This document shows positions 30,629 to 42,509 of a DNA stretch of 54,361 nucleotides, piece after piece. The stretch is taken from positions 1 through 54,361 of the forward strand of contig BTQQ01000001.1 in NCBI GenBank assembly GCA_036985955.1, read 5' to 3'. The translations under genes were made by a program, and so were the position numbers. The notes beneath the pieces were generated by a model that saw only the letters and a list, made by a program, of their open reading frames with translations, made no database searches and was not told the DNA's origin. The first letter of the stretch is position 1; each line of letters opens with the position of its first letter. Origin of the DNA: Zetaproteobacteria bacterium. Its GTDB lineage: Bacteria; Pseudomonadota; Zetaproteobacteria; Mariprofundales; Mariprofundaceae.

Positions 30629-30651
30629 TCGCAGTTGAAAATTTGATCCGG

Positions 30652-30780
30652 CTTTATCAAGAGCAGTGGAGGGTTTCAGGCCCTGTGAAACTGCGGCAAC
30701 CGGCCAACGATGTTAAAGTAAAACGTCCGAGGCGTCCGGTGCCAATGCCTGCTTCCTGATTGAAAGGAAGAGCGATGAGG
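30652..30780 (+). promoter_or_regulatory. SAM-I (S-box) riboswitch aptamer
   Basis: CUUUAUCAAGAGCAGUGGAGGGUUUCAGGCCCUGUGAAACUGCGGCAACC ... GGUGCCAAUGCCUGC ... AGCGAUGAGG matches the conserved S-box blocks (UAUCAAGAG, GGAGGG, GGCCC..UGAA, GCAACC, GGUGCCAAU.CC.GC, AG.GAUGAG). P1 closes as CUUUAUC/GAUGAGG. Confidence 0.9.
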
Positions 30781-30816
30781 TGCGGTTGTCAATGTTCGTG
30801 GATTTTACGCGCATAC

Positions 30817-30848: not shown

Positions 30849-30889
30849 GCCTGTTCTTCTTGATATCTCCGGTATTGGAGCTGTTTAAA

Positions 30890-32143
30890 ATGAGCAAGAG
30901 TATTGCGCGGGCACTGAAATGCCGGGAATGCGGCCAGGAATATGACATTGCGCCGGAGCATGTGTGCGAGTTCTGTTTCGGGCCGCTGGAAGTGGCCTAT
31001 GATTACGATAAGCTGGCCGGAAAATTCACCCGTGAATTGATTGAGTCACGCCCGCAAACAATGTGGCGCTATAAGGAATTGCTGCCGGTGGACGGCGATC
31101 CGACAGTGGGCGTACAGAATGGATTCACGCCACTGGTGCGTGCCCGTAACCTGGAAAAGGCGTTGGGCGTATCCGAGTTGTATATCAAGAATGATTCCGT
31201 GTGTTATCCAACACTGTCGTTTAAGGATCGTGTGGTTTCCGTGGCGTTGTCCAAGGCGGTGGAGTTTGGCTACAAAACCGTAGCCTGTGCTTCTACGGGC
31301 AATCTGGCCGGTTCGGTGGCGGCCAACGCAGCAGCTGCCGGACTCAAGTCCTATGTGTTCATTCCGCATGATCTGGAACGGGGTAAAGTGCTGGGCGCTG
31401 CCATTTATGGAACCACGATGATTGGTATCAAAGGCAATTATGACGATGTGAACCGCCTTTGCTCCGAAATCGCCGGAAAGTACGACTGGGCCTTTGTAAA
31501 CGTAAATGTGCGGCCATTCTATGCCGAAGGATCGAAAACGCTCTGTTATGAAGTGATGGAACAACTGGGCTGGCGCGCGCCGAAACATGTGGTGGTGCCG
31601 ATGGCATCGGGCTCGCTGTGCACCAAAATTCATAAGGCCATTAAGGAATTTGTTCAGCTCGGGCTGGTGGAGGATGTCGAGACCAGAATGTATGGTGCGC
31701 AAGCTACGGGTTGTTCACCAATTTCCAAATCGGTCAAGGAGGGGACGGACCTGATTCATCCGGTACGGCCTGATACCATTGCCAAATCGCTGGCCATTGG
31801 TAATCCGGCAGATGGTTATTATGCCAATCGGGTGATACGTGAAACCGGTGGATGGTCCGAGGATGTATCTGATGATGAAATTGTGGCAGCAATGCGCCTG
31901 CTGGCCGAAACCGAGGGCATCTTCACGGAAACTGCCGGGGGCGTTACCCTTGGTGTGGCGAAGAAGCTGATTGAGCAGGGCCGTATTCCGCGTGACGAAT
32001 CAATTGTCCTGTGTGTGACGGGCAACGGCCTGAAGACGCAGGAAGCGATTGCCGGTAAGGTGGCGGAACCACGTATTATAGGTCCAAGCCTGGATGAGTT
32101 TGATGCGCTGGCTGAGGCGGATGCGGCGCAGCTGGCGGCATAA
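30890..32143 (+). CDS. Threonine synthase-like PLP enzyme with N-terminal zinc ribbon (MetM-like candidate)
   Basis: CRECGQEY...CEFCFGPLE zinc ribbon, PLP-lysine motif LSFKDRVVSVAL and a fold-type II PLP core. ATG at 30890 follows GGAG. Confidence 0.85.
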   Translation: MSKSIARALKCRECGQEYDIAPEHVCEFCFGPLEVAYDYDKLAGKFTRELIESRPQTMWRYKELLPVDGDPTVGVQNGFTPLVRARNLEKALGVSELYIKNDSVCYPTLSFKDRVVSVALSKAVEFGYKTVACASTGNLAGSVAANAAAAGLKSYVFIPHDLERGKVLGAAIYGTTMIGIKGNYDDVNRLCSEIAGKYDWAFVNVNVRPFYAEGSKTLCYEVMEQLGWRAPKHVVVPMASGSLCTKIHKAIKEFVQLGLVEDVETRMYGAQATGCSPISKSVKEGTDLIHPVRPDTIAKSLAIGNPADGYYANRVIRETGGWSEDVSDDEIVAAMRLLAETEGIFTETAGGVTLGVAKKLIEQGRIPRDESIVLCVTGNGLKTQEAIAGKVAEPRIIGPSLDEFDALAEADAAQLAA

Positions 32144-32176
32144 TGTTAAGAAACAGCGAATAACAGGAGTGATAAC

Positions 32177-32458
32177 ATGAGTGTAACCGTACGTATCCCA
32201 ACCCCGTTGCGTAAGTTGACAGGTGGCACCGATGAGGTATCGGTTGATGCGGCCAACGTGGGTGAAATGATTGAGAATCTGGAGAGCGCACATGCCGGGT
32301 TGAAGGAGCGATTATGCGATGAATCCGGCGATATTCGACGTTTCGTGAACATTTATGTGAACGACGAAGATGTACGTTTCCTTCAAGGTAAAGATACGCC
32401 GCTGGCAGACAATGATCAGGTGTCCATTGTGCCCGCCATTGCAGGCGGGAACGCCTGA
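32177..32458 (+). CDS. CysO/MoaD/ThiS-family sulfur-carrier protein
   Basis: MSVTVRIPTPLRKLTGG ... RFVNIYVNDEDVRF ... VSIVPAIAGG-NA. It closely resembles CysO-type carriers. The Gly-Gly is followed by two extra residues. Confidence 0.85.
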   Translation: MSVTVRIPTPLRKLTGGTDEVSVDAANVGEMIENLESAHAGLKERLCDESGDIRRFVNIYVNDEDVRFLQGKDTPLADNDQVSIVPAIAGGNA

Positions 32459-32474
32459 GTATTCGGAGAAAGCT

Positions 32475-32714
32475 TTGAAACAGCGTGTTTATCTGACGTT
32501 TTCAAGAGAAACGGTACGTGAACCTCTGATCTGGAAGGTAGGGCGGGAGTTTGACGTGATTACCAATATCCGCACCGCTGAGGTGAAAGAGGACATGGGT
32601 CTCGTCGGACTGGAGCTTGAGGGTACACAGGATACCGTTGAGCAGGCTCTGGCCTGGCTTAAAGCACAGGGCGTACACGTCGAACCCATCGAGCAGAACA
32701 TTATCGAAGGCTGA
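32475..32714 (+). CDS. Stand-alone NIL-domain protein
   Basis: 79 aa, starting at a TTG after GGAG. The pattern EPLIWKVGREFDVITNIRTAEVKEDMGLVGLELEG..DTVEQALAWLKAQGVHVE is typical of the NIL (MetN C-terminal) fold. It contains no Cys. Confidence 0.7.
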   Translation: MKQRVYLTFSRETVREPLIWKVGREFDVITNIRTAEVKEDMGLVGLELEGTQDTVEQALAWLKAQGVHVEPIEQNIIEG

Positions 32715-32802
32715 GCATACATTATGGCTCGGGGTTTCCTTGTGCTATAAAGTACAGTAATATTGTTGTTGAAATAATTATTTACAGCATATGAGGTGTA
32801 TT

Positions 32803-33735
32803 ATGGTTATATTTAATAATATCGCGGAAACAGTGGGGCATACCCCCCTGGTGCGCTTGCAACGCATGGGTGGTGAGTTAAAGGCTGAAATTCTATTGAA
32901 GCTGGAATTCCGAAATCCACTGAACTCCGTTAAGGACCGTATTGGCAAGGCAATGATTGAGGCTGCCGAAGCGGATGGAAGCCTCAAACCGGGTGGCGTG
33001 ATTGTCGAACCGACCAGTGGCAATACAGGGATTGCGCTGGCATTCGTTGCGCGCGCCAAGGGGTATCGCTGTATATTGACCATGCCGGAATCCATGAGTC
33101 TGGAACGGCGCAAGTTGTTGAAATTACTGGGTGCGGAACTGCAATTAACACCGGCGGAAAAGGGCATGAAGGGTGCAATTGAAAAGGCAACTGAGATTGT
33201 CAGCAAGACCGAGGGCGCATTCATGCCACAGCAGTTTGAAAATCCGGCCAATCCGGAGATCCATCGCAAAACGACTGCGGAGGAAATCTGGGCGGATACG
33301 GATGGGAATGTCGATGCGATTATCGCGGGTGTAGGCACGGGTGGCACCATTACCGGTGTGGCCGAAGTGATTAAATCGCGTAATCCCGATTTTCAGGCTA
33401 TTGCGGTAGAGCCTGCTGATTCGCCTGTCATTTCCGGAGGCAAACCGGGACCGCACAAAATACAGGGTATTGGCGCGGGCTTTATTCCGAAGAATCTGAA
33501 CGTGGATATCGTTGATAGCGTGGAACAGGTCAGCAACGAAGATGCCTTGAGTACGGCACGTCGCTTATCGGATGAGGAAGGCATTGCCGGTGGCATTTCC
33601 TCCGGTGCGGCTATGGCCGCGGCACTGAAAGTGGCGGCAAGACCGGATATGGAAGGCAAACGTATCGTGGTCATCCTGCCATCCATGGCAGAACGCTATA
33701 TGTCCACGGATTTGTTTAAAGGAATTGAAGTTTAA
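32803..33735 (+). CDS. cysK: Cysteine synthase A (O-acetylserine sulfhydrylase)
   Basis: NSVKDR PLP lysine, [20 protein letters not shown] and C-terminal ERYMSTDLF. It is collinear with E. coli CysK. Confidence 0.92.
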
Positions 33736-33754
33736 CAGTAACCGGAGGGTGTAA

Positions 33755-34579
33755 GTGATTGATTTTACAGAAGAACAAATTGAGCGCTATTCGCGCCATA
33801 TTATCCTGCCAGAGGTTGGCGGTGAGGGACAGTCAAGGTTGCTTGAGTCCAAGGTGTTTATGATTGGTGCAGGTGGACTGGGCAGTCCCGTGGCCTATTA
33901 TCTGGCGGCAGCAGGCGTGGGAACCATTGGCATCGCCGATGCCGATGTGGTGGATATGTCCAATCTCCAGCGCCAGATTATTCATAACAATGAACGTATT
34001 GGCATGGAAAAGGTGGAGAGCGCGAAAAAGACCATACAAGCGCTGAATCCGGATGTGAATGTTATTACCTACACCGAGCGTGTCACCGAGGAAAATGTGC
34101 GCGAGATTATTCGTGATTACGATCTGATTGTGGACGGTTGTGATAATTTCCCGACCCGTTTTCTGGTCAACGATGCCTGTTTTTTCGAGCAGAGAACACT
34201 GGTTTCAGGCGCGATGTTCCGCTTCGAAGGGCAAGTGACGACATTCAAGCCCCATACGGACAGGGAAGGCCCGTGCTATCGCTGCCTGTATCCCGAGCCG
34301 CCTCCGGCAGGTCTGGTACCAAGCTGTTCCGAAGCCGGGATTCTGGGCGCATTGGCCGGATCTGTAGGCACAATTCAGGCTGTGGAAGTGATTAAGGAGT
34401 TATTGGGTATTGGCAATTCCCTGTCCGGCTATCTTATGACCTTTGATGCGCTACGCATGGAGTGGCGTAAACTGAAGCTTCGCAAGGATCCGGCCTGCCC
34501 GTTGTGCTCGGAAAAAGCGACCATCAAGGATTTGATTACTTATGATGAGGCGTGTGAATTGCGCGCCGCTCAAGCCTGA
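33755..34579 (+). CDS. ThiF/MoeB-family E1-like adenylyltransferase (no rhodanese domain)
   Basis: RYSRHIILPEVG, GAGGLGS and two CxxC pairs (CYRC, CPLC). The GTG start follows GGAGGG. Confidence 0.88.
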   Translation: MIDFTEEQIERYSRHIILPEVGGEGQSRLLESKVFMIGAGGLGSPVAYYLAAAGVGTIGIADADVVDMSNLQRQIIHNNERIGMEKVESAKKTIQALNPDVNVITYTERVTEENVREIIRDYDLIVDGCDNFPTRFLVNDACFFEQRTLVSGAMFRFEGQVTTFKPHTDREGPCYRCLYPEPPPAGLVPSCSEAGILGALAGSVGTIQAVEVIKELLGIGNSLSGYLMTFDALRMEWRKLKLRKDPACPLCSEKATIKDLITYDEACELRAAQA

Positions 34580-34590
34580 GGAGCAGGAAC

Positions 34591-36924
34591 ATGGCAGCAG
34601 CTGAACCGATAAATTTCGCCAGTGAAGGCGATATTGAGGAATATGAAGCAGGATTAAAGGCATTCCTGGACGGGCGTATGCCCGAGGAACGCTTTACGCC
34701 GTTCCGGTTGCAAATGGGTGTGTATGGCCAGCGGCAGGATGGTGTGCAGATGATGCGCATAAAACTACCCGGTGGCTGTTTGACGCCCGCGCAACTGGAT
34801 GTGATTGCTGATATTGTGGACCAGTATGCTGGTGAGCTTGGCGCACCCAAGCTGGCACATGTGACAACGCGGCAGGATATTCAGGCGCATTTTCTGCGTC
34901 TGGAGGATACGCCTGCCATCCTGCGTAAGCTGGCCAAAGCTGGTATGACCACGCGCGAGGCTTGCGGCAATACTGTACGCAACGTGACATCATGTTTCCT
35001 GTCCGGTGTATGCCCCGCCGAACATGCCAATGTTAATGTGCATGCTCAGCGTTTTGCCGATTTTTATTTACGGCATCCATTGACGCAGCAATTTCCACGT
35101 AAATTCAAGGTTACCTTTTCAGGTTGTGCCACGGACTGCGGGCTTTCGGCTATGCATGACATCGGCTTTATAGCGAAAACGGAAAACGGCAACCATGGTT
35201 TTGAGGTCTGGGCGGCCGGTGGGTTGTCCACCCATCCGGTTTCGGCCATTAAACTCGAAGACTTTATCGAGGAGAAAGAACTCCTGCTGGTTGGTGAAGC
35301 GCTGATGCGCATTCATTTCAAGTATTCGGACCGCAAACATCGTGCGCGGGCGCGCATGAAATATGTATTGATGAAGCTCGGCGCTGAAGGCTTTATTGAC
35401 CTGTATCGCAAGGAACGTGCGGCTGTGGAAAAGGCGCACGGTACTGATTCGGGGTATCCCGAAGCGAACTGGCGTGAACCGTCCGGCCCGCTTCCGTTTC
35501 ATGGTGACCCAGTAGTGGATCAGCATGATAGTCGCAAGGCTGTGCTGCTCAATCTGTTCCGTGGTGATCTGACACCGGCGCAGTGCCATGCCGTAGCAGA
35601 GGCGGCACGTGTGGGTGGTAGCAATGATATTCGCGTTACGCCCGAACAGGGCGTGGTCGTTACCGGTGTTGTACCGGAAAAAACGGATGAGGTAATAGCT
35701 ATTCTGGATGCCGCCAGGATTACAACCAGGCATGCACGTGGTATTTCCGATGTGACGGCGTGCCCCGGTGTGGAATCCTGCCGGTTGGCCATTACCAATT
35801 CCTATGGACTGGCCGATACCATTAAACCGGAGCTTGAAAAGTTGACCGTGAACTATCCCGATCTTGCCGGGATACAGGTTAAAATTTCGGGGTGCCAACA
35901 CTCCTGTGGCCAACATCATATCGCCGATCTCGGGTTCCACGGCCTGGCGAAGAAGATCGAGAGCAGGGCCGTGCCACATTATCAATTGCATGTTGGCGGT
36001 TCAGGTAAGGCGGGCGAGGCTTTTGGTTATGCCACGAATCCCGTACCAGCCAAGCGTGCGCCGGAAGCGGGAATCGCCGTGCTTCGTACCTATCAGGAGG
36101 AGCGGGAAACGGATGAAAGCGTGCATGATTGGGCGGCCCGCGTTGGCAAGGATGGCATCAATGCTATTTTGGCACCATTTTCCGCCGGTGAGGGCGAGGT
36201 TGAAGGGTTGATGTATGACTGGAGCGAGAATCAGCCCTTCTCGACCAAAGATAACAAGCCGGGCGAGTGCGCCGCCGCCGTGGTTGGCATGACCGATGCG
36301 CTGGTCGCCGAGGCTCAATATGAATTGCGTGTCGGCACTGCCCATCTGGATTCCATGTTCTGGGCTGAGGCATTGGAGGGCTACAAGCAGTCCGCCATCT
36401 CTGCCGCACGAGCCTTTCTGGTCGTCTACGGTGAAAAGCCGGAGGATGATGCGCAAGTTTTTGGCCTGCTGGCTGGCCTTGCCGTGGCCGACAAGGAGGT
36501 CTCCGGCGGCTTGGCCAAGGCAACATCGGCATTAATGAACGTCAATATCGCCGATCCTGCGCCGGGTGTCACCGCCTTGCGGGATGTGGTTGAAGCATTT
36601 GTTGATCTTGCGTCCGTCCGGTTTGCACCGGTGCCTCAGGAAGAATCCAAAGCACCGGATGCACCTGCCGCGAAACAGACATCAGCCGGAGATGGAGAAC
36701 CGATTCTGCTAGACCTCACAGGTGTGGCCTGTCCGATGAATTTCGTCAAGACTAAACTGAAACTGGAAACGCTGCCGGCTGGCGCGCGTCTGTCAGTGAT
36801 TCTTGATGATGGCGAACCCATCGAGAATGTTCCGCGTTCCCTGGAAGAACAGGGGCAGAAGGTACTTGCGCAGGAGAAAATTTCTGACAGCCAGTGGAAG
36901 ATTCTGGTGGAGAAGTCTGCCTAA
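34591..36924 (+). CDS. Ferredoxin-type sulfite (nitrite) reductase fused to a helical linker domain and a C-terminal TusA/SirA domain
   Basis: Siroheme/4Fe-4S motifs are CPGVESC and GCQHSCGQH. The last 73 aa (36703-36921) read LDLTGVACPMNFVKTKLKLETL..., which is TusA-like. Confidence 0.85.
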   Translation: MAAAEPINFASEGDIEEYEAGLKAFLDGRMPEERFTPFRLQMGVYGQRQDGVQMMRIKLPGGCLTPAQLDVIADIVDQYAGELGAPKLAHVTTRQDIQAHFLRLEDTPAILRKLAKAGMTTREACGNTVRNVTSCFLSGVCPAEHANVNVHAQRFADFYLRHPLTQQFPRKFKVTFSGCATDCGLSAMHDIGFIAKTENGNHGFEVWAAGGLSTHPVSAIKLEDFIEEKELLLVGEALMRIHFKYSDRKHRARARMKYVLMKLGAEGFIDLYRKERAAVEKAHGTDSGYPEANWREPSGPLPFHGDPVVDQHDSRKAVLLNLFRGDLTPAQCHAVAEAARVGGSNDIRVTPEQGVVVTGVVPEKTDEVIAILDAARITTRHARGISDVTACPGVESCRLAITNSYGLADTIKPELEKLTVNYPDLAGIQVKISGCQHSCGQHHIADLGFHGLAKKIESRAVPHYQLHVGGSGKAGEAFGYATNPVPAKRAPEAGIAVLRTYQEERETDESVHDWAARVGKDGINAILAPFSAGEGEVEGLMYDWSENQPFSTKDNKPGECAAAVVGMTDALVAEAQYELRVGTAHLDSMFWAEALEGYKQSAISAARAFLVVYGEKPEDDAQVFGLLAGLAVADKEVSGGLAKATSALMNVNIADPAPGVTALRDVVEAFVDLASVRFAPVPQEESKAPDAPAAKQTSAGDGEPILLDLTGVACPMNFVKTKLKLETLPAGARLSVILDDGEPIENVPRSLEEQGQKVLAQEKISDSQWKILVEKSA

Positions 36925-36939
36925 ACAGCGGCCAAAATC

Positions 36940-38166
36940 ATGACGATTTTTGATAATTCCGGCCGTACCAAGTTGGCCCTGGTGACGCACGGCGTAACGC
37001 TTCCCGATGGTTTGCCACAGGCCTCTCACTGGATTTCCCAGGCCAATGCCGTGGAAACGGTACTGGATATGCGCCTTCCCAGTGGGCACTTTGCAACCGT
37101 TCCTGTAGCCCAGCCGTTTACGGAGAAGAGTCCGATTGCACTGCATGTTACGGAAGATGGATGTGAACTGGCACACGAAGGTGAGAGGCTGCACGTGGAA
37201 TTGCTTGCGGCGCCTAAATATTACCATCGGACGACACGCGCCGGTGCCCGTATGGGGAGCTTCTCGTCGCTGCATGATAAATTACTGATTTTGCATCCGC
37301 TGATGGGCTGTGGGTTTTTCGCCGATCAGGGGAAGGCCTGCCAGTACTGTCAGTATGATTCGATGCTGAATGAAGCGATCCCACCGTTACGCGATCCGCT
37401 GGAACTGGTGGAGGTGGTGCGGGCGGCGCTGGCCGAGCGTGAAGTGGACACGGTGTATCTGTACAATGGTCATGTGCCGGGGGATCAGGCGGGACTGGAT
37501 CGTCTGATTTCGCTAATTGCACTGTTGCGCCGTCACCTGGGGCATCGTCAAATTGCATTGGAAACCGTAGCGCCACGCGATACCTCCATGATCGACGACC
37601 TGTATGCCGCAGGGCTGGATGTGCTGATTTGCAATCTTGAATTATTCGATGAAGAACGATTTGCCACTGTCTGTCCCGGCAAACAGGCCGAAGGCGGTCA
37701 GGAAGCGATATGGCGCGCGCTTGGGCATGCTGCTTCGGTATTCCGCGAGGGAGCGGTTGTCAGCCACCTGATTTTGGGTCTGGAACCGGTGAAATCGACG
37801 ATTTCCGGCATGGAAGCCCTGGTGGAACATGGCGTGGTGCCGTTGTTGATTCCCTTTCGCCCATTGCCAGGGACGCCTTTGGAACATACGGCCCTTCCGG
37901 ATATGGATGCCGCCGAGGAAGCCTTTCTCGCATTGTATGACATTCTGGCGGCATCCGGTTTGCCGACGCATCGTTTGCGCGATATGGGGCGTGTGCTTAC
38001 GCCAATGGAAAGCAGGGTGCTGGTAGGGCGAGAGGTATCCTTGCCGGAACGCCTGACGTTGACTCCTGTGGGCAGAAAGATGGGTGGATGGTTCGATGCC
38101 TTGCGGCGTACACTCAGAGTACAATATACCGATTCAGAAACGGGACGGGGCGGGACAGGACACTAG
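36940..38166 (+). CDS. Uncharacterised radical-SAM-like protein with a C-X9-C-X2-C motif
   Basis: CGFFADQGKACQYCQY (C124, C134, C137), followed by TIM-barrel-like alternating segments (VYLYNG, ALETV, VLICNLELFDE, HLILGL, PLLIPFRP). No family could be assigned by eye. Confidence 0.55.
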   Translation: MTIFDNSGRTKLALVTHGVTLPDGLPQASHWISQANAVETVLDMRLPSGHFATVPVAQPFTEKSPIALHVTEDGCELAHEGERLHVELLAAPKYYHRTTRAGARMGSFSSLHDKLLILHPLMGCGFFADQGKACQYCQYDSMLNEAIPPLRDPLELVEVVRAALAEREVDTVYLYNGHVPGDQAGLDRLISLIALLRRHLGHRQIALETVAPRDTSMIDDLYAAGLDVLICNLELFDEERFATVCPGKQAEGGQEAIWRALGHAASVFREGAVVSHLILGLEPVKSTISGMEALVEHGVVPLLIPFRPLPGTPLEHTALPDMDAAEEAFLALYDILAASGLPTHRLRDMGRVLTPMESRVLVGREVSLPERLTLTPVGRKMGGWFDALRRTLRVQYTDSETGRGGTGH

Positions 38167-38167
38167 G

Positions 38168-39595
38168 ATGCCAGTCATTTTTGATAACCGGCCCATGCAC
38201 GTATTGCTGGCGCAGAAGGGACTGCCGTTTGCGGCACTGGCTTTCCTTGCGGTGATAGCATGGTGGGCGGTGGGACAAGAGGTGCCTGCCGGATTGAGTC
38301 ATTCTGGCTGGCGCGCCATCATTGTTTTTACCCTTTGTCTTGTTCTCTGGATATCCCAATTATTGCCATTAGCGGTTACTGCTATCCTGGGACTGGCTTT
38401 GCTGCCCTTACTGGATGTGATGCCGGCTAATGAAACCTTTGCCTTGTTCGGTAACCCTGCCGTGTTTTTTATTCTGGGCGCATTTATGCTGGCTGCGGGC
38501 GTGATCAAGTCCGGGCTCTCCGAACATCTTGCTCTGGCCTTGCTGGAACGGGTGGGATCAAGTCCCCGGCGATTACTGCTGGCAATGCTGTTGTTGCCCG
38601 CATTCATGGCTTTCTTTATGCCTGAACATGCCGTGGCAGCGGTATTTCTTCCGCTTGCATGGGAGGTTGTCCGGGCGCTTGGGCTCAAGCCGGGAGACCG
38701 GTATGCACAATCGGTGTTTCTTGCTATGGCATGGGGCGCCATCGTAGGCGGCGTTGCCACCTTGCTGGGTGGTGCACGCGGACCGCTGGCCATGGCGCTG
38801 GTACAGGAATTAGCCGGTAAATCATTTTCGTTCCTTGACTGGACCATCGCCGCAGCACCACTGGTTGCCGGTATGCTGGCCGTCGGTGCTGTATTGCTTC
38901 TTTTGGTTACGCCAGTTCATGGGATTGATGTTGGGTCCGTCCGCGAAACAATTGAGAAGAAACGGCTGGAATCCGGTTTGCTTAATTGGCAAGGGCGTAT
39001 CATGGCTCTGTTGATGGTTGTGACCATCATCGCATGGCTGTTTGCAGGGCATGCGGTCGGACTTGCCAGTATTGCTCTAATCAGCGTCGTATGCATGTTT
39101 GCACTGCGGCTGGTTTCATGGAAAGAAATTCAGGCAAACGTAAGCTGGGATGTGGTCTTGCTATACGGTGGGGCGATAGCCATCGGCAAGGCGATTGCCG
39201 TGACGGGCGCGGGCGCATGGTTGGCTTCATGGTTGTTGCCAGTGGGTGCAGCGGGTTTGGGATTATTATTTCTGATGGCGTTGGCGACTTTGCTGTTAAC
39301 CGAGGGGGTAAGCAATTCTGCCGCCGTGGCCATTATGTTGCCTGTGGCGATTCCGGCAGGGCTGGCTGCAGGCATGAATCTCGTGACTGTATCCATGGCC
39401 GTTGGAATTGTTGCGGGATTTGCCTTCATGTTACCCATGGGAACGCCGCCCAATGCCATGATTTTTGCTACAGGCTACGTGAAAACTGCCACAATGTTGC
39501 GCTATGGAGCTCTCATGTCTGTCGCGGCATTCACCCTGTTTGCATTGACGGTCTGGTTGTGGTGGCCTCTTGCAGGCATTGGAGTGATGAAGTGA
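38168..39595 (+). CDS. SLC13/DASS-family anion permease (probable sulfate transporter)
   Basis: Polytopic 475-aa protein with DASS-like repeated hairpin regions (TEGVSNSAAVAIMLP, MLPMGTPPNAMIF). The ATG lies 1 nt after the preceding stop. Confidence 0.8.
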   Translation: MPVIFDNRPMHVLLAQKGLPFAALAFLAVIAWWAVGQEVPAGLSHSGWRAIIVFTLCLVLWISQLLPLAVTAILGLALLPLLDVMPANETFALFGNPAVFFILGAFMLAAGVIKSGLSEHLALALLERVGSSPRRLLLAMLLLPAFMAFFMPEHAVAAVFLPLAWEVVRALGLKPGDRYAQSVFLAMAWGAIVGGVATLLGGARGPLAMALVQELAGKSFSFLDWTIAAAPLVAGMLAVGAVLLLLVTPVHGIDVGSVRETIEKKRLESGLLNWQGRIMALLMVVTIIAWLFAGHAVGLASIALISVVCMFALRLVSWKEIQANVSWDVVLLYGGAIAIGKAIAVTGAGAWLASWLLPVGAAGLGLLFLMALATLLLTEGVSNSAAVAIMLPVAIPAGLAAGMNLVTVSMAVGIVAGFAFMLPMGTPPNAMIFATGYVKTATMLRYGALMSVAAFTLFALTVWLWWPLAGIGVMK

Positions 39596-40314
39596 ACACA
39601 TCGGCATTGATTGAGTCCACCGTAGCACTACTGCGGCAAGCCAGAGACAAACATGGCGACCGTCTGATTTACCCCTGTGCCATGGGTTCGGAAGGAATGG
39701 TTCAGATTGATCTGATCTGCAAACAGGTCACCGGAATTCGTATTATGACGCTGGACACGGGTCGCCTGCCACAGGCTACCTATGAATTGATGCAGAAAGT
39801 GCGCGAGCATTATGGTATTGATCTGGAAATCATGTTTCCAGACCGGGATGAGGTTGAGGCCATGGTGCGCGAACGCGGAGTGAACCTGTTTTATCACTCG
39901 GTTGAAAACCGCAAACTTTGCTGTGGTATACGCAAAGTGCACCCGCTTAAACGGGCGCTTACCGGTATGGAAGCATGGATCACGGGACGACGCCGGGATC
40001 AATCGGAGAACCGTGCGGTAGTTCAACCGGTTGAGGATGATCCGGTTTTTGGCCTGATAAAGTATAATCCCATGCTTGACTGGACGGAAAGCGATATCTG
40101 GGCCTATATCCGGGAGCATGATGTGCCTTATAACCGCTTACACGATGAACATTATGTCTCGATTGGATGCGAATGTTGTACCCGTGCCATTACCGCCGGA
40201 GAAGACCCGCGCGCCGGGCGCTGGTGGTGGGAGAACGAAGACACCCTGGCTGAATGCGGGCTGCATGTCAGTTCACTGAATGCGGGTGAAGGAGAGGCGG
40301 GTGAGGGGATATAG
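39592..40314 (+). CDS. cysH: Assimilatory adenylyl-sulfate (APS) reductase, Fe-S type
   Basis: KLCCGIRK plus GCECC cysteines and the C-terminal ECGLH. The GTG start overlaps the permease stop (GTGA), after GGAG. The track ORF (38986) is an artefactual upstream extension. Confidence 0.9.
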   Translation: MNTSALIESTVALLRQARDKHGDRLIYPCAMGSEGMVQIDLICKQVTGIRIMTLDTGRLPQATYELMQKVREHYGIDLEIMFPDRDEVEAMVRERGVNLFYHSVENRKLCCGIRKVHPLKRALTGMEAWITGRRRDQSENRAVVQPVEDDPVFGLIKYNPMLDWTESDIWAYIREHDVPYNRLHDEHYVSIGCECCTRAITAGEDPRAGRWWWENEDTLAECGLHVSSLNAGEGEAGEGI

Positions 40315-40323
40315 GAGAAACAA

Positions 40324-41232
40324 ATGAGTGAACACAGACTCACGCAACTCAAGACGCTGGAAGCGGAGTCCATCCACATCATGCGGGAAGTGGTGGCCGA
40401 GTTTCGCAATCCGGTCATGCTTTATTCCATTGGTAAGGATTCCAGTGTGATGTTGCATCTGGCACGCAAGGCTTTTTATCCTGCGCCGTTGCCATTTCCA
40501 CTGTTGCATGTGGATACTGCCTATAAGTTTCCCGAGATGTATGAATTTCGTGAATGGTTTGTGAAGGAAATTGGTGCGGAGTTGATTGTCAGGCGTAATG
40601 AAGACGCTATCAATAAGGGAATGAATCCCAAGGAATACGGCGTGGCGCGATGCTGCGGTGCATTGAAGACGCAGGGTCTGCTGGATGCGCTGGAAGAGGG
40701 GAATTACGATGCCGCTTTTGGCGGTGCGCGGCGCGACGAGGAGCGCAGCCGTGCCAAGGAGCGCGTGTTTTCCATTCGTGATGAATTCGGTCAGTGGGAT
40801 CCGAAGAACCAGCGGCCTGAATTGTGGGATATCTACAATGGCCGTATCCATGAGGGCGAGAGTGTACGCGTATTCCCCTTGTCCAACTGGACGGAAATGG
40901 ATATCTGGCTCTATATCCGCGAAGAAAATATCCCGATCGTGCCGTTGTATTATGCCAAAAAGCGGCCGATGGTGGAACGGGGAAGTCTGCTGATTCCGTA
41001 TTATGAAGAAACAAAGGATCAGCTTTTGAAAGGCGAAGAACCAACAATGGTGATGAGCCGTTTCCGAACACTGGGCTGTATGCCATGCACGGGGGCTGTG
41101 CGTTCCAATGCTACTACGATTGATGAAATCGTGGCGGAGGCCGCTGCTGCGCGCAGAAGCGAGCGCGAAACACGCATTATCGATCATGGCGCCAATACCA
41201 TGGAAGACAAGAAGAAAGAAGGGTATTTTTAG
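40324..41232 (+). CDS. cysD: Sulfate adenylyltransferase subunit 2
   Basis: 302 aa with PAPS-reductase-fold motifs ([23 protein letters not shown]). Confidence 0.95.
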
Positions 41233-41234
41233 AG

Positions 41235-42509
41235 ATGACAGCAAATATCAATTTTAAACTCAGCCAGACTATCCAACTGCTGCGACTGGCTACGGTAGGC
41301 AGTGTAGATGATGGCAAATCAACCCTGATTGGCCGTCTTCTGGTGGATACCAAAGGAGCTTTTGAGGATCAGTTGCTTTCAGTAACGCGCAAGAAAGGTG
41401 CTGCATCAGAGGCTGAAGTAGATCTTGCCATGTTGACGGATGGTTTATCCGCCGAACGCGAACAGGGCATCACGATTGATGTCGCATACCGTTATTTTGC
41501 TACGCCGAAACGAAAATTTATCATGGCTGACTGTCCAGGCCACGAGCAATACACACGCAATATGGTAACAGGGGCTTCTACGGCCAATGCCGCCATCATC
41601 CTGATTGACGCTCGCAATGGGGTCATGCCGCAAACCAAAAGGCATACGCATATCCTGGGCCTGCTGGGAACGCCTCATCTGGTTGTTGCCATCAATAAAA
41701 TGGACATGGTGGAGTATGATCAGGGTATATTTGAGAAAATTCGTACCGATATCAACGCTTATTGTGAAAAACAGGGGATCAAGGATCTGAGTTGTATTCC
41801 AATATCGGCTTTGCATGGCGATATGGTAGTTACGCGCGGCGATTCCATGCCCTGGTATAAAGACAGAACATTGCTGGAAACACTTGAATCGATTGAAGTA
41901 ACCGACCATATCGAGCGCTTGCCGTTCCGTTTTGCAGTGCAATATGTCAATCGTCCGCAAACAGAAAATCTACCAGACTTCCGGGGTTATTGCGGCCGCA
42001 TCAATTCCGGCACTGTACGTGTCGGTGATACGGTAGCGTTATTACCAAGCGGCAAGACATCCCGCATTAAGGAAATTGTCACGTTTGACGGAAATCCGGA
42101 TGAAGCATTTGCACCACAGAGTGTAACACTGACATTGGCGGATGATATTGATATTTCACGTGGTGATATGATTGTACATTCAGACCCAATACCTGAAATA
42201 CGCAAGGAAATTGAAGGAATAGTCTGCTGGATAGGTGATGAACCGTTGGAAGTACGCAAAAAATATATCATTAAGCAAACTACGAACTCAGTGCGGGCCG
42301 TTGCAACGGATATTGTTTATCGCACCGATATTCACACCTTGAATCGAGATGATGCAGACGAACTGGGAGTCAATGAAATTGGCCGGGTGAGCTTTAAACT
42401 GGCACAGCCAATTTATTGCGATACGTATGCGGACAATCGCGCCACCGGCAGCTTTATCATTATTGATACGTTTACCAATATTACGGTTGGCGCCGGCATG
42501 ATTTGTTGA
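41235..42509 (+). CDS. cysN: Sulfate adenylyltransferase subunit 1 (GTPase, no APS-kinase domain)
   Basis: G-domain motifs GSVDDGKST, DCPGH and NKMD. At 424 aa it lacks a CysC fusion. Confidence 0.93.
   Translation: MTANINFKLSQTIQLLRLATVGSVDDGKSTLIGRLLVDTKGAFEDQLLSVTRKKGAASEAEVDLAMLTDGLSAEREQGITIDVAYRYFATPKRKFIMADCPGHEQYTRNMVTGASTANAAIILIDARNGVMPQTKRHTHILGLLGTPHLVVAINKMDMVEYDQGIFEKIRTDINAYCEKQGIKDLSCIPISALHGDMVVTRGDSMPWYKDRTLLETLESIEVTDHIERLPFRFAVQYVNRPQTENLPDFRGYCGRINSGTVRVGDTVALLPSGKTSRIKEIVTFDGNPDEAFAPQSVTLTLADDIDISRGDMIVHSDPIPEIRKEIEGIVCWIGDEPLEVRKKYIIKQTTNSVRAVATDIVYRTDIHTLNRDDADELGVNEIGRVSFKLAQPIYCDTYADNRATGSFIIIDTFTNITVGAGMIC

Follow-up and report, generated by a model that had tools for sequence, protein, structure and literature searches.

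A radical-SAM-like gene between a sulfite reductase and a permease

The stretch of DNA analysed here (hereafter the window, 54,361 nucleotides of contig BTQQ01000001.1 from the Zetaproteobacteria assembly GCA_036985955.1) carries a sulfate-assimilation operon in which an open reading frame (ORF) encodes a 408-aa variant-motif protein of the radical S-adenosylmethionine (SAM) superfamily. This radical-SAM-like (rSAM) gene is enclosed between the gene of a sulfite reductase fused to TusA (SiR-TusA) and that of a permease of the DASS/SLC13 family (Table 1). The subfamily to which it belongs and the permease form a conserved two-gene unit that occurs in at least seven phyla and whose two members co-diversify, and this unit is embedded in sulfate-assimilation clusters with a ThiS-like sulfur carrier behind a SAM-I riboswitch.

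Both junctions of the rSAM gene are tight. The SiR-TusA gene stops at 36924, leaving a gap of 15 nt, and the ATG of the permease (38168) lies 1 nt past the rSAM stop at 38166. There is an alternative in-frame GTG at 38084, but we favoured the ATG since homologues and natural fusions share the motif xDxRPxxxLL, here FDNRPMHVLL. The cysteines of the 408-aa protein are at positions 75, 124, 134, 137, 231, and 245, and the sole cysteine cluster is C124-x9-C134-x2-C137, within CGFFADQGKACQYCQY. The ORF, the two gaps and the three clustered cysteines had been described in an earlier note on this DNA and were confirmed from the sequence. The sequencing runs containing the target sequence were DNA metagenome runs only.

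Membership in the radical SAM superfamily

The earlier note had taken the product for an uncharacterised radical-SAM-like protein. Profile searches agreed with this identification, with 35.4 bits for Pfam Radical_SAM (PF04055, gathering score 29.5) and 182.2 bits for NCBIfam NF045502 "variant_rSAM" (cutoff 125). The PF04055 match starts at residue 133, so that C124 falls outside it. The AlphaFold2 model obtained with 21 homologues (predicted local distance difference test, pLDDT, 87.6; predicted template modelling score, pTM, 0.87) exhibited a beta-rich N-terminal domain, a (beta/alpha)6 core and C-terminal helices. The strands 171–175, 204–209, 228–231, 273–279, and 300–305 alternate with helices, as expected from the TIM-barrel-like alternation previously read after the motif. 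When this model was compared to the PDB with Foldseek, 73 matches were obtained at E <= 1e-3, and the best 50 of 73 were all radical SAM enzymes or radical-SAM-type proteins, the top ones being HydE (3e-8), then RlmN, BioB, LipA/LIAS, PylB, ThiH, and HydG. A family profile also retrieved ThiH (E 9.5e-5, residues 135–249) and human lipoyl synthase (LIAS, 3e-3) among PDB sequences.

In the profile alignments with ThiH and LIAS, C134 and C137 took the places of the canonical Cys2 and Cys3, in agreement with the proposal that they form its CxxC-aromatic end. The first cluster cysteine is thus shifted 6 residues upstream (CX9CX2C), the Cys1–Cys2 spacing being x9 and not the canonical x3. In the same alignments, YNLE lay over the ribose motif HNVET of LIAS and GLEP over GLGE, and the beta6-type motif P301...F/Y-R/K-P308, nearly or fully invariant, could also be aligned to LIAS. 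The equivalent of the GGE motif is tentatively YLYNG177, with G177 conserved at 85%.

We recovered 1,648 cluster representatives at E <= 1e-3 in an exhaustive profile search. Conservation in 128 diverse representatives reached 86%, 93%, and 93% for C124, C134, and C137, 97% for G280 and 89% for E282. The spacing between the first two cysteines varies from x7 to x18 in the family (x8 is the commonest, x9 the next), and apparent losses of the first cysteine in the alignment are partly artefacts of this variable spacing; degenerate members were decided by a regular expression on the motif. N232, E234, D237, P246, and G247 were conserved both in these representatives and in 57 operon-linked loci, where N232/E234, I278/G280/E282, P301, and R/K307-P308 were essentially invariant. 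C245, in the motif CPGK, was kept in 52 of the 57 loci; it is the only further conserved cysteine, and no auxiliary-cluster cysteine motif was found in the 408-aa protein. Judging from these sequences, the cysteine motif is far beyond chance. The earlier note had staked its identification on the family assignment and on the conservation of the three cysteines; profiles and fold both point to radical SAM, and the triad is kept in 55 of the 57 operon-linked homologues, the exceptions being the Cys-less L007 and the frameshifted L058.

The N-terminal region, in which no feature had been recognised, turned out to be a beta-rich domain of about 120 aa, also when modelled alone (pLDDT 87). It gave no significant fold match in the PDB (best Foldseek E 0.11, template modelling score <= 0.27), and the NF045502 model spans both this domain and the barrel in relatives. 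A single-sequence match to the ATP sulfurylase 1v47 (E 0.33, residues 32–114) was rejected, because a profile of 18 N-domain sequences retrieved nothing at E <= 10 from PDB sequences and the separate model of the domain had no fold match.

We are thus nearly certain that the target has the radical-SAM-superfamily fold and its cluster site. Structurally, its neighbours are of the BioB/ThiH/HydE-like kind, and within the family NF045502 it represents a distinct, unmodelled subfamily, recognisable by a beta domain of its own at the N-terminus and by the basic helix RRxLRV at the C-terminus. The target displays the features by which we propose to define this DASS-linked subfamily, namely R389-R-T-L-R-V394 and, 1 nt downstream, a permease with FDNRPMHVLL. 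The literature searched (including PMC1779556, PMC5840216, PMC5764234, and PMC9477430) yielded no described function for the CX8-9CX2C family.

Pairing of the gene with a DASS permease

The close homologues were nearly all from Zetaproteobacteria, with preserved gene order, and a second large profile search again retrieved almost only this clade. GTDB species genomes, nearly all labelled as metagenome-assembled, provided 53 further loci from Thermodesulfobacteriota/"Deltaproteobacteria", Desulfuromonadales, Myxococcota, Binatia, Actinomycetes, Terriglobia, Margulisiibacteriota, and Armatimonadetes. Neighbours were counted in 56 non-redundant loci, 52 of them with downstream DNA and most of them short contigs of metagenome-assembled genomes, and were annotated by phmmer with a limited reference set, the window's own proteins.

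A DASS permease was immediately downstream of the rSAM gene in 44 of the 52 loci according to the automatic count, and in about 47 of 52 (about 90%) once we added L038 and L039, where stop-to-stop ORF boundaries had hidden it, and a partial gene in L007. The upstream neighbour was more variable (ThiF in 27 of the 56 loci, JAB in 11, ThiS in 2, and sulfite reductase in 2, both from Zetaproteobacteria); the window is a further zetaproteobacterial locus with sulfite reductase upstream. Natural fusions, in which the whole rSAM-like protein precedes the permease in a single polypeptide, are present in some Zetaproteobacteria (P0018, P0044, P0045, and P0074, 881 aa).

The rSAM homologues of other lineages share a common core context. 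The deltaproteobacterial consensus is ThrC-SiR-TusA-ThiS-NIL-CysM-JAB-ThiF-rSAM-DASS-(USP, CysC)-CysH. We found (AhcY)-ThiF::TusA-ThiS-shortThiF-JAB-rSAM-DASS-ferredoxin in Myxococcota, ThiF-ThiS-CysM-ThiF-rSAM-DASS in Binatia, and SiR-TusA-ThiF-CysH-TusA-Sat-rSAM-DASS-CysM-JAB in Actinomycetes. Individual loci, with rSAM homologues of 25–32% identity, read PALP-JAB-ThiF-rSAM-DASS (L006), ThiF-rSAM-DASS (L008 and P0085), ThiS-rSAM(Cys-less)-DASS (L007), TusA-ThiS-ThiF-JAB-rSAM-PP-loop ATPase, without permease (L009), and ThiF-ThiS-JAB::rSAM (L010); in the latter, P0084 (L010 719–2446) is a 575-aa protein joining a prokaryotic JAB peptidase domain to the rSAM-like part. The pair stands without ThiS or ThiF inside 10 kb in L054 and L055. 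Overall, the companions of the unit are ThiS, ThiF, JAB, TusA, sulfite reductase, CysK/M, a ThrC-like enzyme, CysH, Sat, and CysC.

The two proteins also carry matched terminal motifs. The C-terminal motif R389-R390-x-L-R393-V was invariant in the 57 operon-linked loci, and most paired permeases across phyla exhibited E-I-D-x-R-P-[IL]-x3-[LI]-L-x-[RK]-S just ahead of the first transmembrane helix, on the cytoplasmic side. The regular expression for the latter missed a few loci, Zetaproteobacteria having variants such as FDNRPMHVLL. About 15 residues separate the RRxLRV helix from the permease motif in the natural fusions. The pairwise-distance matrices of rSAM and DASS were correlated with r = 0.85, compared to 0.42 for rSAM and ThiF, and the partial correlation controlled for ThiF was also 0.85.

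From these observations, the rSAM-like protein is probably a functional partner of the permease. The transported substrate is likely sulfate, since Sat or probable CysDN, CysC, and CysH accompany the unit and bacterial DASS proteins import sulfate; permeases of the "PerO" type have been reported as sulfate transporters (PMC5840216).

Several variations were noticed around the permease. A 7Fe-type ferredoxin gene directly follows it in Myxococcota (L040 12988–13416 and L041 12819–13292), where the cassette also encodes an E1::TusA fusion accompanied by a second, shorter ThiF-like protein (translations read by eye). In the deltaproteobacterial loci L015 (12616–13107) and L018 (2805–3317), a USP-like gene of about 155 aa, also identified by eye, lies after the permease and before CysC/CysH; its product could be an additional transporter regulator.

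Members without the cysteine triad

The triad was degenerate, according to the motif regular expression, in 7 of the 37 representatives bearing the C-terminal motif. Three Cys-less members, P0072/L007, P0090/L064, and P0113/L065, still have the scaffold and the C-terminal motif, with the permease next to them. These are the degenerate members whose context could be read, and the gene orders were Rrf2-ATP sulfurylase-pseudo-rSAM-DASS in L064, flavoprotein-pseudo-rSAM-DASS in L065, and the order given above in L007, and the permeases shared the same N-terminal motif. Association with the permease thus does not need the Fe-S cluster, as Cys-less members still directly precede it.

The operon and its riboswitch

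From 30860 to 42509, every gene of the window is on the forward strand with minimal spacing (Table 1). Beyond the window, a SAM-I riboswitch was found ahead of the cluster in 7 of 7 further loci tested, and this arrangement is common to zetaproteobacterial, deltaproteobacterial, and Desulfuromonadales genomes. The whole operon of about 11.6 kb, CysH and probable CysDN included, appears to be under SAM control. Another SAM-relevant gene, AhcY (S-adenosylhomocysteine hydrolase, identified by reading the translation), lies beside the Myxococcota cassette (L038 6461–7795).

Table 1. Location of the features of the window (positions 1 to 54,361) and of selected features at other loci.
Feature	Location	Strand	Evidence or remark
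SAM-I (S-box) riboswitch	30651..30781	+	Rfam RF00162, 74.6 bits (gathering 44.4), full model matched; precedes first operon gene
ThrC-like pyridoxal-phosphate (PLP) enzyme with N-terminal zinc-ribbon	30860..32143	+	Pfam PALP, NinF-like ribbon; NCBIfam thrC-like; conserved in cluster
ThiS/MoaD-like sulfur carrier ending ...PAIAGGNA	32177..32458	+	Pfam ThiS 62.7 bits; C-termini compared between loci
NIL-domain protein (mechanical ORF)	32370..32714	+	Pfam NIL 52 bits, residues 39–105; orthologues 72–79 aa
CysK-type cysteine synthase	32791..33735	+	NCBIfam cysK 460 bits, over cutoff
ThiF/MoeB-type E1-like adenylyltransferase without rhodanese domain	33755..34579	+	Pfam ThiF 279.8 bits; NCBIfam MoeB family
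Ferredoxin-type sulfite reductase with C-terminal TusA	34591..36924	+	Pfam NIR_SIR x2, NIR_SIR_ferr x2, TusA residues 707–775
Variant-motif radical-SAM-superfamily protein, 408 aa	36940..38166	+	ORF, hidden Markov models, AlphaFold model, Foldseek
N-terminal beta-rich domain, residues 1–120, family-specific	36940..37299	+	NF045502 coverage in relatives; pLDDT 87; no PDB fold relative
Putative cluster-binding loop C124-x9-C134-x2-C137	37309..37350	+	Motif, conservation, profile alignment
Beta4 CNLE ribose-type motif through CPGK (C231..K248)	37630..37683	+	Conservation; LIAS HNVET alignment
Predicted GxIxGxxE-type SAM-binding motif, S275-H-L-I-L-G-L-E282	37762..37785	+	Conservation; LIAS MLGLGE alignment
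C-terminal basic helix motif R389-R-x-L-R-V394	38104..38121	+	Marks permease/ThiS-linked subfamily
DASS/SLC13 (Na_sulph_symp) permease	38168..39595	+	NCBIfam dass 257.6 bits, over cutoff; Pfam; adjacency, fusions
Permease cytoplasmic N-terminal motif FDNRPMHVLL	38180..38209	+	Comparison of paired permeases
CysH-type phosphoadenylylsulfate/adenylylsulfate (PAPS/APS) reductase, GTG start overlapping permease stop	39592..40314	+	Orthologue in L001 with Pfam PAPS_reduct; phmmer matches in other loci
Probable CysD, sulfate adenylyltransferase subunit	40324..41232	+	Named by reading translation
Probable CysN, sulfate adenylyltransferase subunit	41235..42509	+	Named by reading translation
Further SAM-I riboswitches	L001 2648–2767; L002 3804–3905; L015 3020–3141; L016 4090–4210; L025 1213–1330; L031 3195–3306; L045 3311–3426		
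Cys-less rSAM genes directly upstream of DASS	L007 489–1688; L064 4226–5593; L065 1034–2221		

In the ThrC-like enzyme, the N-terminal CxxC...CxxC zinc-ribbon matches Pfam NinF, and the score with the threonine-synthase equivalog (286.6) is just under the cutoff of 303. This fits a MetM-type homocysteine synthase using a carrier thiocarboxylate and not a threonine synthase; the product is probably a carrier-thiocarboxylate-dependent homocysteine synthase. The cluster of L029 has homologues of both the probable CysD and the probable CysN in its vicinity, and that of L041 a homologue of CysN.

The ThiS-like carrier of the window ends with AGGNA, and exposing its Gly-Gly requires the removal of two residues, but the 54-kb window encodes no peptidase of the JAB/Mec type. 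Other lineages carry JAB in the cluster, and the Binatia clusters without JAB have a ThiS ending exactly with GG. Since the NIL domain covers residues 39–105 of the mechanical ORF, the true start of the NIL gene probably overlaps the end of ThiS. Single ThiS-NIL fusion proteins occur in L030, L031, L032, L033, L058, and L063 (Desulfuromonadales and delta loci); outside this context, NIL domains have been described in MetN and in the homocysteine pathway of methanogens (NIL/ferredoxin). Sulfite reductase and TusA are fused in Zetaproteobacteria and encoded by separate neighbouring genes in the deltaproteobacterial loci (sulfite reductase of about 320 aa). The fusion suggests that sulfite may be reduced on the TusA cysteine or handed straight to it, which recalls DsrAB-DsrC.

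Comparison with known families and pathways

The motif class of the target is already catalogued, RadicalSAM.org listing in Megacluster-4-6 both CX8CX2C (4-6-1, -3, -5, and -6) and CX9CX2C (4-6-4) subclusters (PMC9477430). Megacluster-4 is the biotin/thiazole-synthase subgroup (PMC9477430), consistent with the fold neighbours of the target, which probably belongs to Megacluster-4-6. Likewise, the domain-level model NF045502 shares with the target the variant motif class, with a score above cutoff. These are function-less catalogue entries, and NF045502 describes neither the RRxLRV helix nor the permease linkage. The MSMEG_0568 family of the Nit1C cluster (TIGR04043) is homologous over residues 49–343 and shares the variant motif and the N-domain, but the target is not a member (101.1 bits for a cutoff of 303.7) and no Nit1C partner (nitrilase, GNAT, or AIR-synthase-like) was found near the gene.

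HydE, BioB, LipA/LIAS, ThiH, and PylB share with the target the (beta/alpha)6 core and alignable CxxC-aromatic, ribose (NxE), and GxIxGxxE motifs. They differ by a low identity (14–21%) and by a first cysteine at x3 instead of x9, whereas the target lacks the kind of ligands that serve the auxiliary clusters in BioB, LipA, or HydE and has its unique N-domain and C-terminal helix. Sulfur insertion, a role put forward in the earlier note, received no specific support: the score with LipS2 was 25.9 bits for a cutoff of 270, the BioB and LipA models were also far under cutoff, and the second cysteine cluster is absent, so we rejected the sulfur-inserting class (LipA/LipS2, BioB, MiaB/RimO). We also rejected HmdB, with a score far under cutoff, and a ThiH-type tyrosine lyase, for which there was a local profile match only and no ThiH NCBIfam match. 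We noticed no ThiG-type gene among the examined neighbours, although no explicit ThiG search was made. The QueE of Burkholderia multivorans, with its CX14CX2C insertion, is of the type named as a precedent in the earlier note and resembles the target in tolerating an insertion between Cys1 and Cys2; specific similarity was not detected.

At the level of the operon, the window shares the ThiS-like carrier, an E1 without rhodanese, TusA/SirA, sulfite reductase, PAPS reductase, and PLP sulfhydrylases with the thiocarboxylate-dependent Cys/Met operons (CysO-CysM-Mec-MoeZ and HcyS-HcyF-HcyD). It belongs to the known protein-thiocarboxylate sulfate-assimilation class, class 4e of Iyer, Burroughs and Aravind 2006 (PMC1779556). 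As described, this class has ABC sulfate transporters, with no mention of a radical SAM gene or of a DASS permease (PMC1779556). The rSAM-DASS module is an undescribed addition to these operons, or an alternative uptake module.

Possible functions of the radical-SAM-like protein

Radical SAM chemistry is not part of textbook sulfate assimilation, and the position of the gene next to SiR-TusA had suggested a service role for the reductase. This maturation or repair of a siroheme or Fe-S cofactor now seems very improbable. The 15-nt spacing is suggestive and the gene order is repeated in other Zetaproteobacteria, but sulfite reductase is the upstream neighbour in Zetaproteobacteria only (2 of 56 loci plus the window), many cassettes have none in the available sequence (Myxococcota, Binatia, L054, and L055), and the constant partner is the DASS permease. 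Siroheme-modifying radical SAM enzymes carry SPASM domains, whereas the target exhibits no similarity to these enzymes and no SPASM/twitch cysteine motif. Considering the JAB fusion together with the ThiS/ThiF/JAB linkage, a role in carrier processing, also raised in the earlier note, is possible. Alternatively, the permease could import a non-sulfate sulfur compound such as thiosulfate or an organosulfonate, the rSAM-like protein cleaving C-S or S-S bonds at the membrane and feeding SiR-TusA and the carrier with sulfite or sulfane sulfur. Close pairing or fusion of an enzyme with a transporter typifies substrate-processing modules, TusA domains are present in the clusters, the thiosulfate uptake system YeeE/YeeD consists of a permease and a TusA-like protein, and the Arg-rich C-terminal lid could hold an anionic substrate. 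We nevertheless regard this scenario as improbable: sulfate activation is completely covered by genes of the clusters (Sat or probable CysDN, CysC, and CysH), Cys-less variants retain the pairing, and DASS/PerO permeases are documented as sulfate importers (PMC5840216).

A more serious candidate, doubtful but about as probable as the reading preferred below, is an active radical SAM enzyme for an unrecognised step of sulfur-carrier-dependent sulfate assimilation, permease adjacency reflecting only co-expression or a metabolon. Such a step could be the loading of sulfur on adenylated ThiS, the reductive resolution of a ThiS-TusA acyl-persulfide, or the modification of the carrier or of an adduct with the JAB peptidase. 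The conservation across phyla of the triad, the ribose, GxIxGxxE, and beta6 motifs and the extra C245 speaks for it, as do the upstream ThiF (27), JAB (11), and ThiS (2) genes, the JAB::rSAM fusion P0084, and L009, in which TusA-ThiS-ThiF-JAB-rSAM is followed by a PP-loop ATPase and no permease. The nearest structural relatives (HydE, BioB, LipA, and ThiH) perform sulfur or ThiS-linked chemistry, a ferredoxin adjoins the pair in Myxococcota, and, as the E1 lacks rhodanese, no enzyme is assigned to the loading of sulfur (Iyer et al. 2006, PMC1779556). On the other hand, Cys-less derivatives persist, apparently under selection, beside the permease and Sat, the pairs of L054, L055, and L064 have no ThiS or ThiF nearby, and the target has no auxiliary-cluster motif. 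The characterised carrier-dependent systems CysO/CysM/Mec/MoeZ of M. tuberculosis and HcyS/HcyF/HcyD of Wolinella are not known to involve such an enzyme and use other sulfate transporters.

We infer, tentatively, that the data are best explained overall by a permease-docked SAM/Fe-S coupling subunit. The core job of the protein would be at the permease because the Cys-less pairing, the stand-alone pairs, the fusions, and the matched terminal motifs all point there. SAM/[4Fe-4S]-responsive coupling or gating is proposed since SAM is both the ligand of the fold and the end-product signal of the operon. The rSAM-like protein would dock on the cytoplasmic face of the permease through a predicted contact between its Arg-rich C-terminal helix and the acidic/Pro N-terminal segment (EIDxRP) of the latter. 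C124, C134, and C137 would bind a [4Fe-4S] cluster with SAM on the unique iron, and this occupancy, or the redox state, may couple sulfate entry to the ThiS/ThiF/JAB machinery. The result would be a fast end-product feedback of SAM on uptake, atop the slower riboswitch control. Functionally, this resembles GlnK-AmtB (PII regulator and ammonium channel), also a conserved and sometimes fused two-gene unit of a cytoplasmic metabolite-binding protein and the permease by which the nutrient of its pathway is taken up; there is no homology between the two systems, and regulation by an rSAM-like protein is hypothetical.

That the protein works as a regulatory or hub subunit responsive to SAM/Fe-S, and not as an enzyme of a pathway step, is a view we hold with considerable reserve, at somewhat less than even odds. 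The more specific proposal, in which a secondary transporter has acquired a radical-SAM-fold protein as cytoplasmic subunit and this protein senses SAM and/or the Fe-S or redox state through its [4Fe-4S]-SAM site, and gates or organises sulfate uptake and its hand-off to a ThiS-based metabolon, is rather unlikely as it stands. Enzymatic and docked-subunit functions are not exclusive and can both hold. Several points weigh against the coupling subunit. We know of no precedent for a radical-SAM-fold protein as a transporter regulator, and a near-invariant triad with SAM motifs, C245, and CPGK would show the pattern of a working enzyme. The 7Fe ferredoxin right after the Myxococcota permease suggests that the cluster is reduced as catalysis requires. 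The permease is not the sole partner either, considering the JAB fusion P0084 and the loci with ThiS/JAB/ThiF linkage and no adjacent permease (L009, L010, L037, and L050). ThiF paralogues weaken the ThiF control of the distance correlations, and the loci outside Zetaproteobacteria are almost all short contigs of metagenome-assembled genomes.

Occurrence and significance

The rSAM-like protein is a constant member of a cassette, controlled by a SAM riboswitch, with the sulfur carrier, E1, peptidase, and permease. This cassette was recovered from Zetaproteobacteria, Thermodesulfobacteriota, Desulfuromonadales, Myxococcota, Binatia, Actinomycetes, Terriglobia, and Margulisiibacteriota. Its presence suggests that uncultured lineages and the iron-oxidising Zetaproteobacteria have a sulfate uptake module of the DASS type, and makes the target gene a good candidate for a component still missing from sulfate uptake or assimilation. 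If the protein is an enzyme, it would provide a missing step of protein-thiocarboxylate-dependent sulfur assimilation; if it is a regulator, it would be the first one derived from a radical SAM protein to act on a transporter, and the counterpart of GlnK-AmtB for sulfur, with the Cys-less members as a pseudo-enzyme end state. Its role would be new either way. We found no description, in the literature searched, of the subfamily and its C-terminal motif, of its partnership with the permease and the resulting fusions, of the fusion to JAB, of the control by an S-box, or of the pseudo-enzyme derivatives. The gene context also gives a genomic handle on the uncharacterised CX8/9CX2C clusters of RadicalSAM.org.

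Broken genes and distant branches

The permease of L027 (11424–12911) is broken into three ORFs and the rSAM-like gene of L058 (2733–3960) into two, either through frameshifts introduced during assembly of these metagenomic genomes or because the copies are decaying. Neither the RRxLRV motif nor the permease was found in the distant branches P0100, P0128, P0157, and P0208. The rSAM gene of P0100 (L004 7114–9251) is overlapped upstream by a UbiA prenyltransferase gene on an archaeal-looking contig, P0128 and P0157 carry N-terminal ATP-grasp fusions (about 800 aa), and P0208, a GNAT fusion of the Nit1C/MSMEG_0568 branch, passes the cutoff of TIGR04043.

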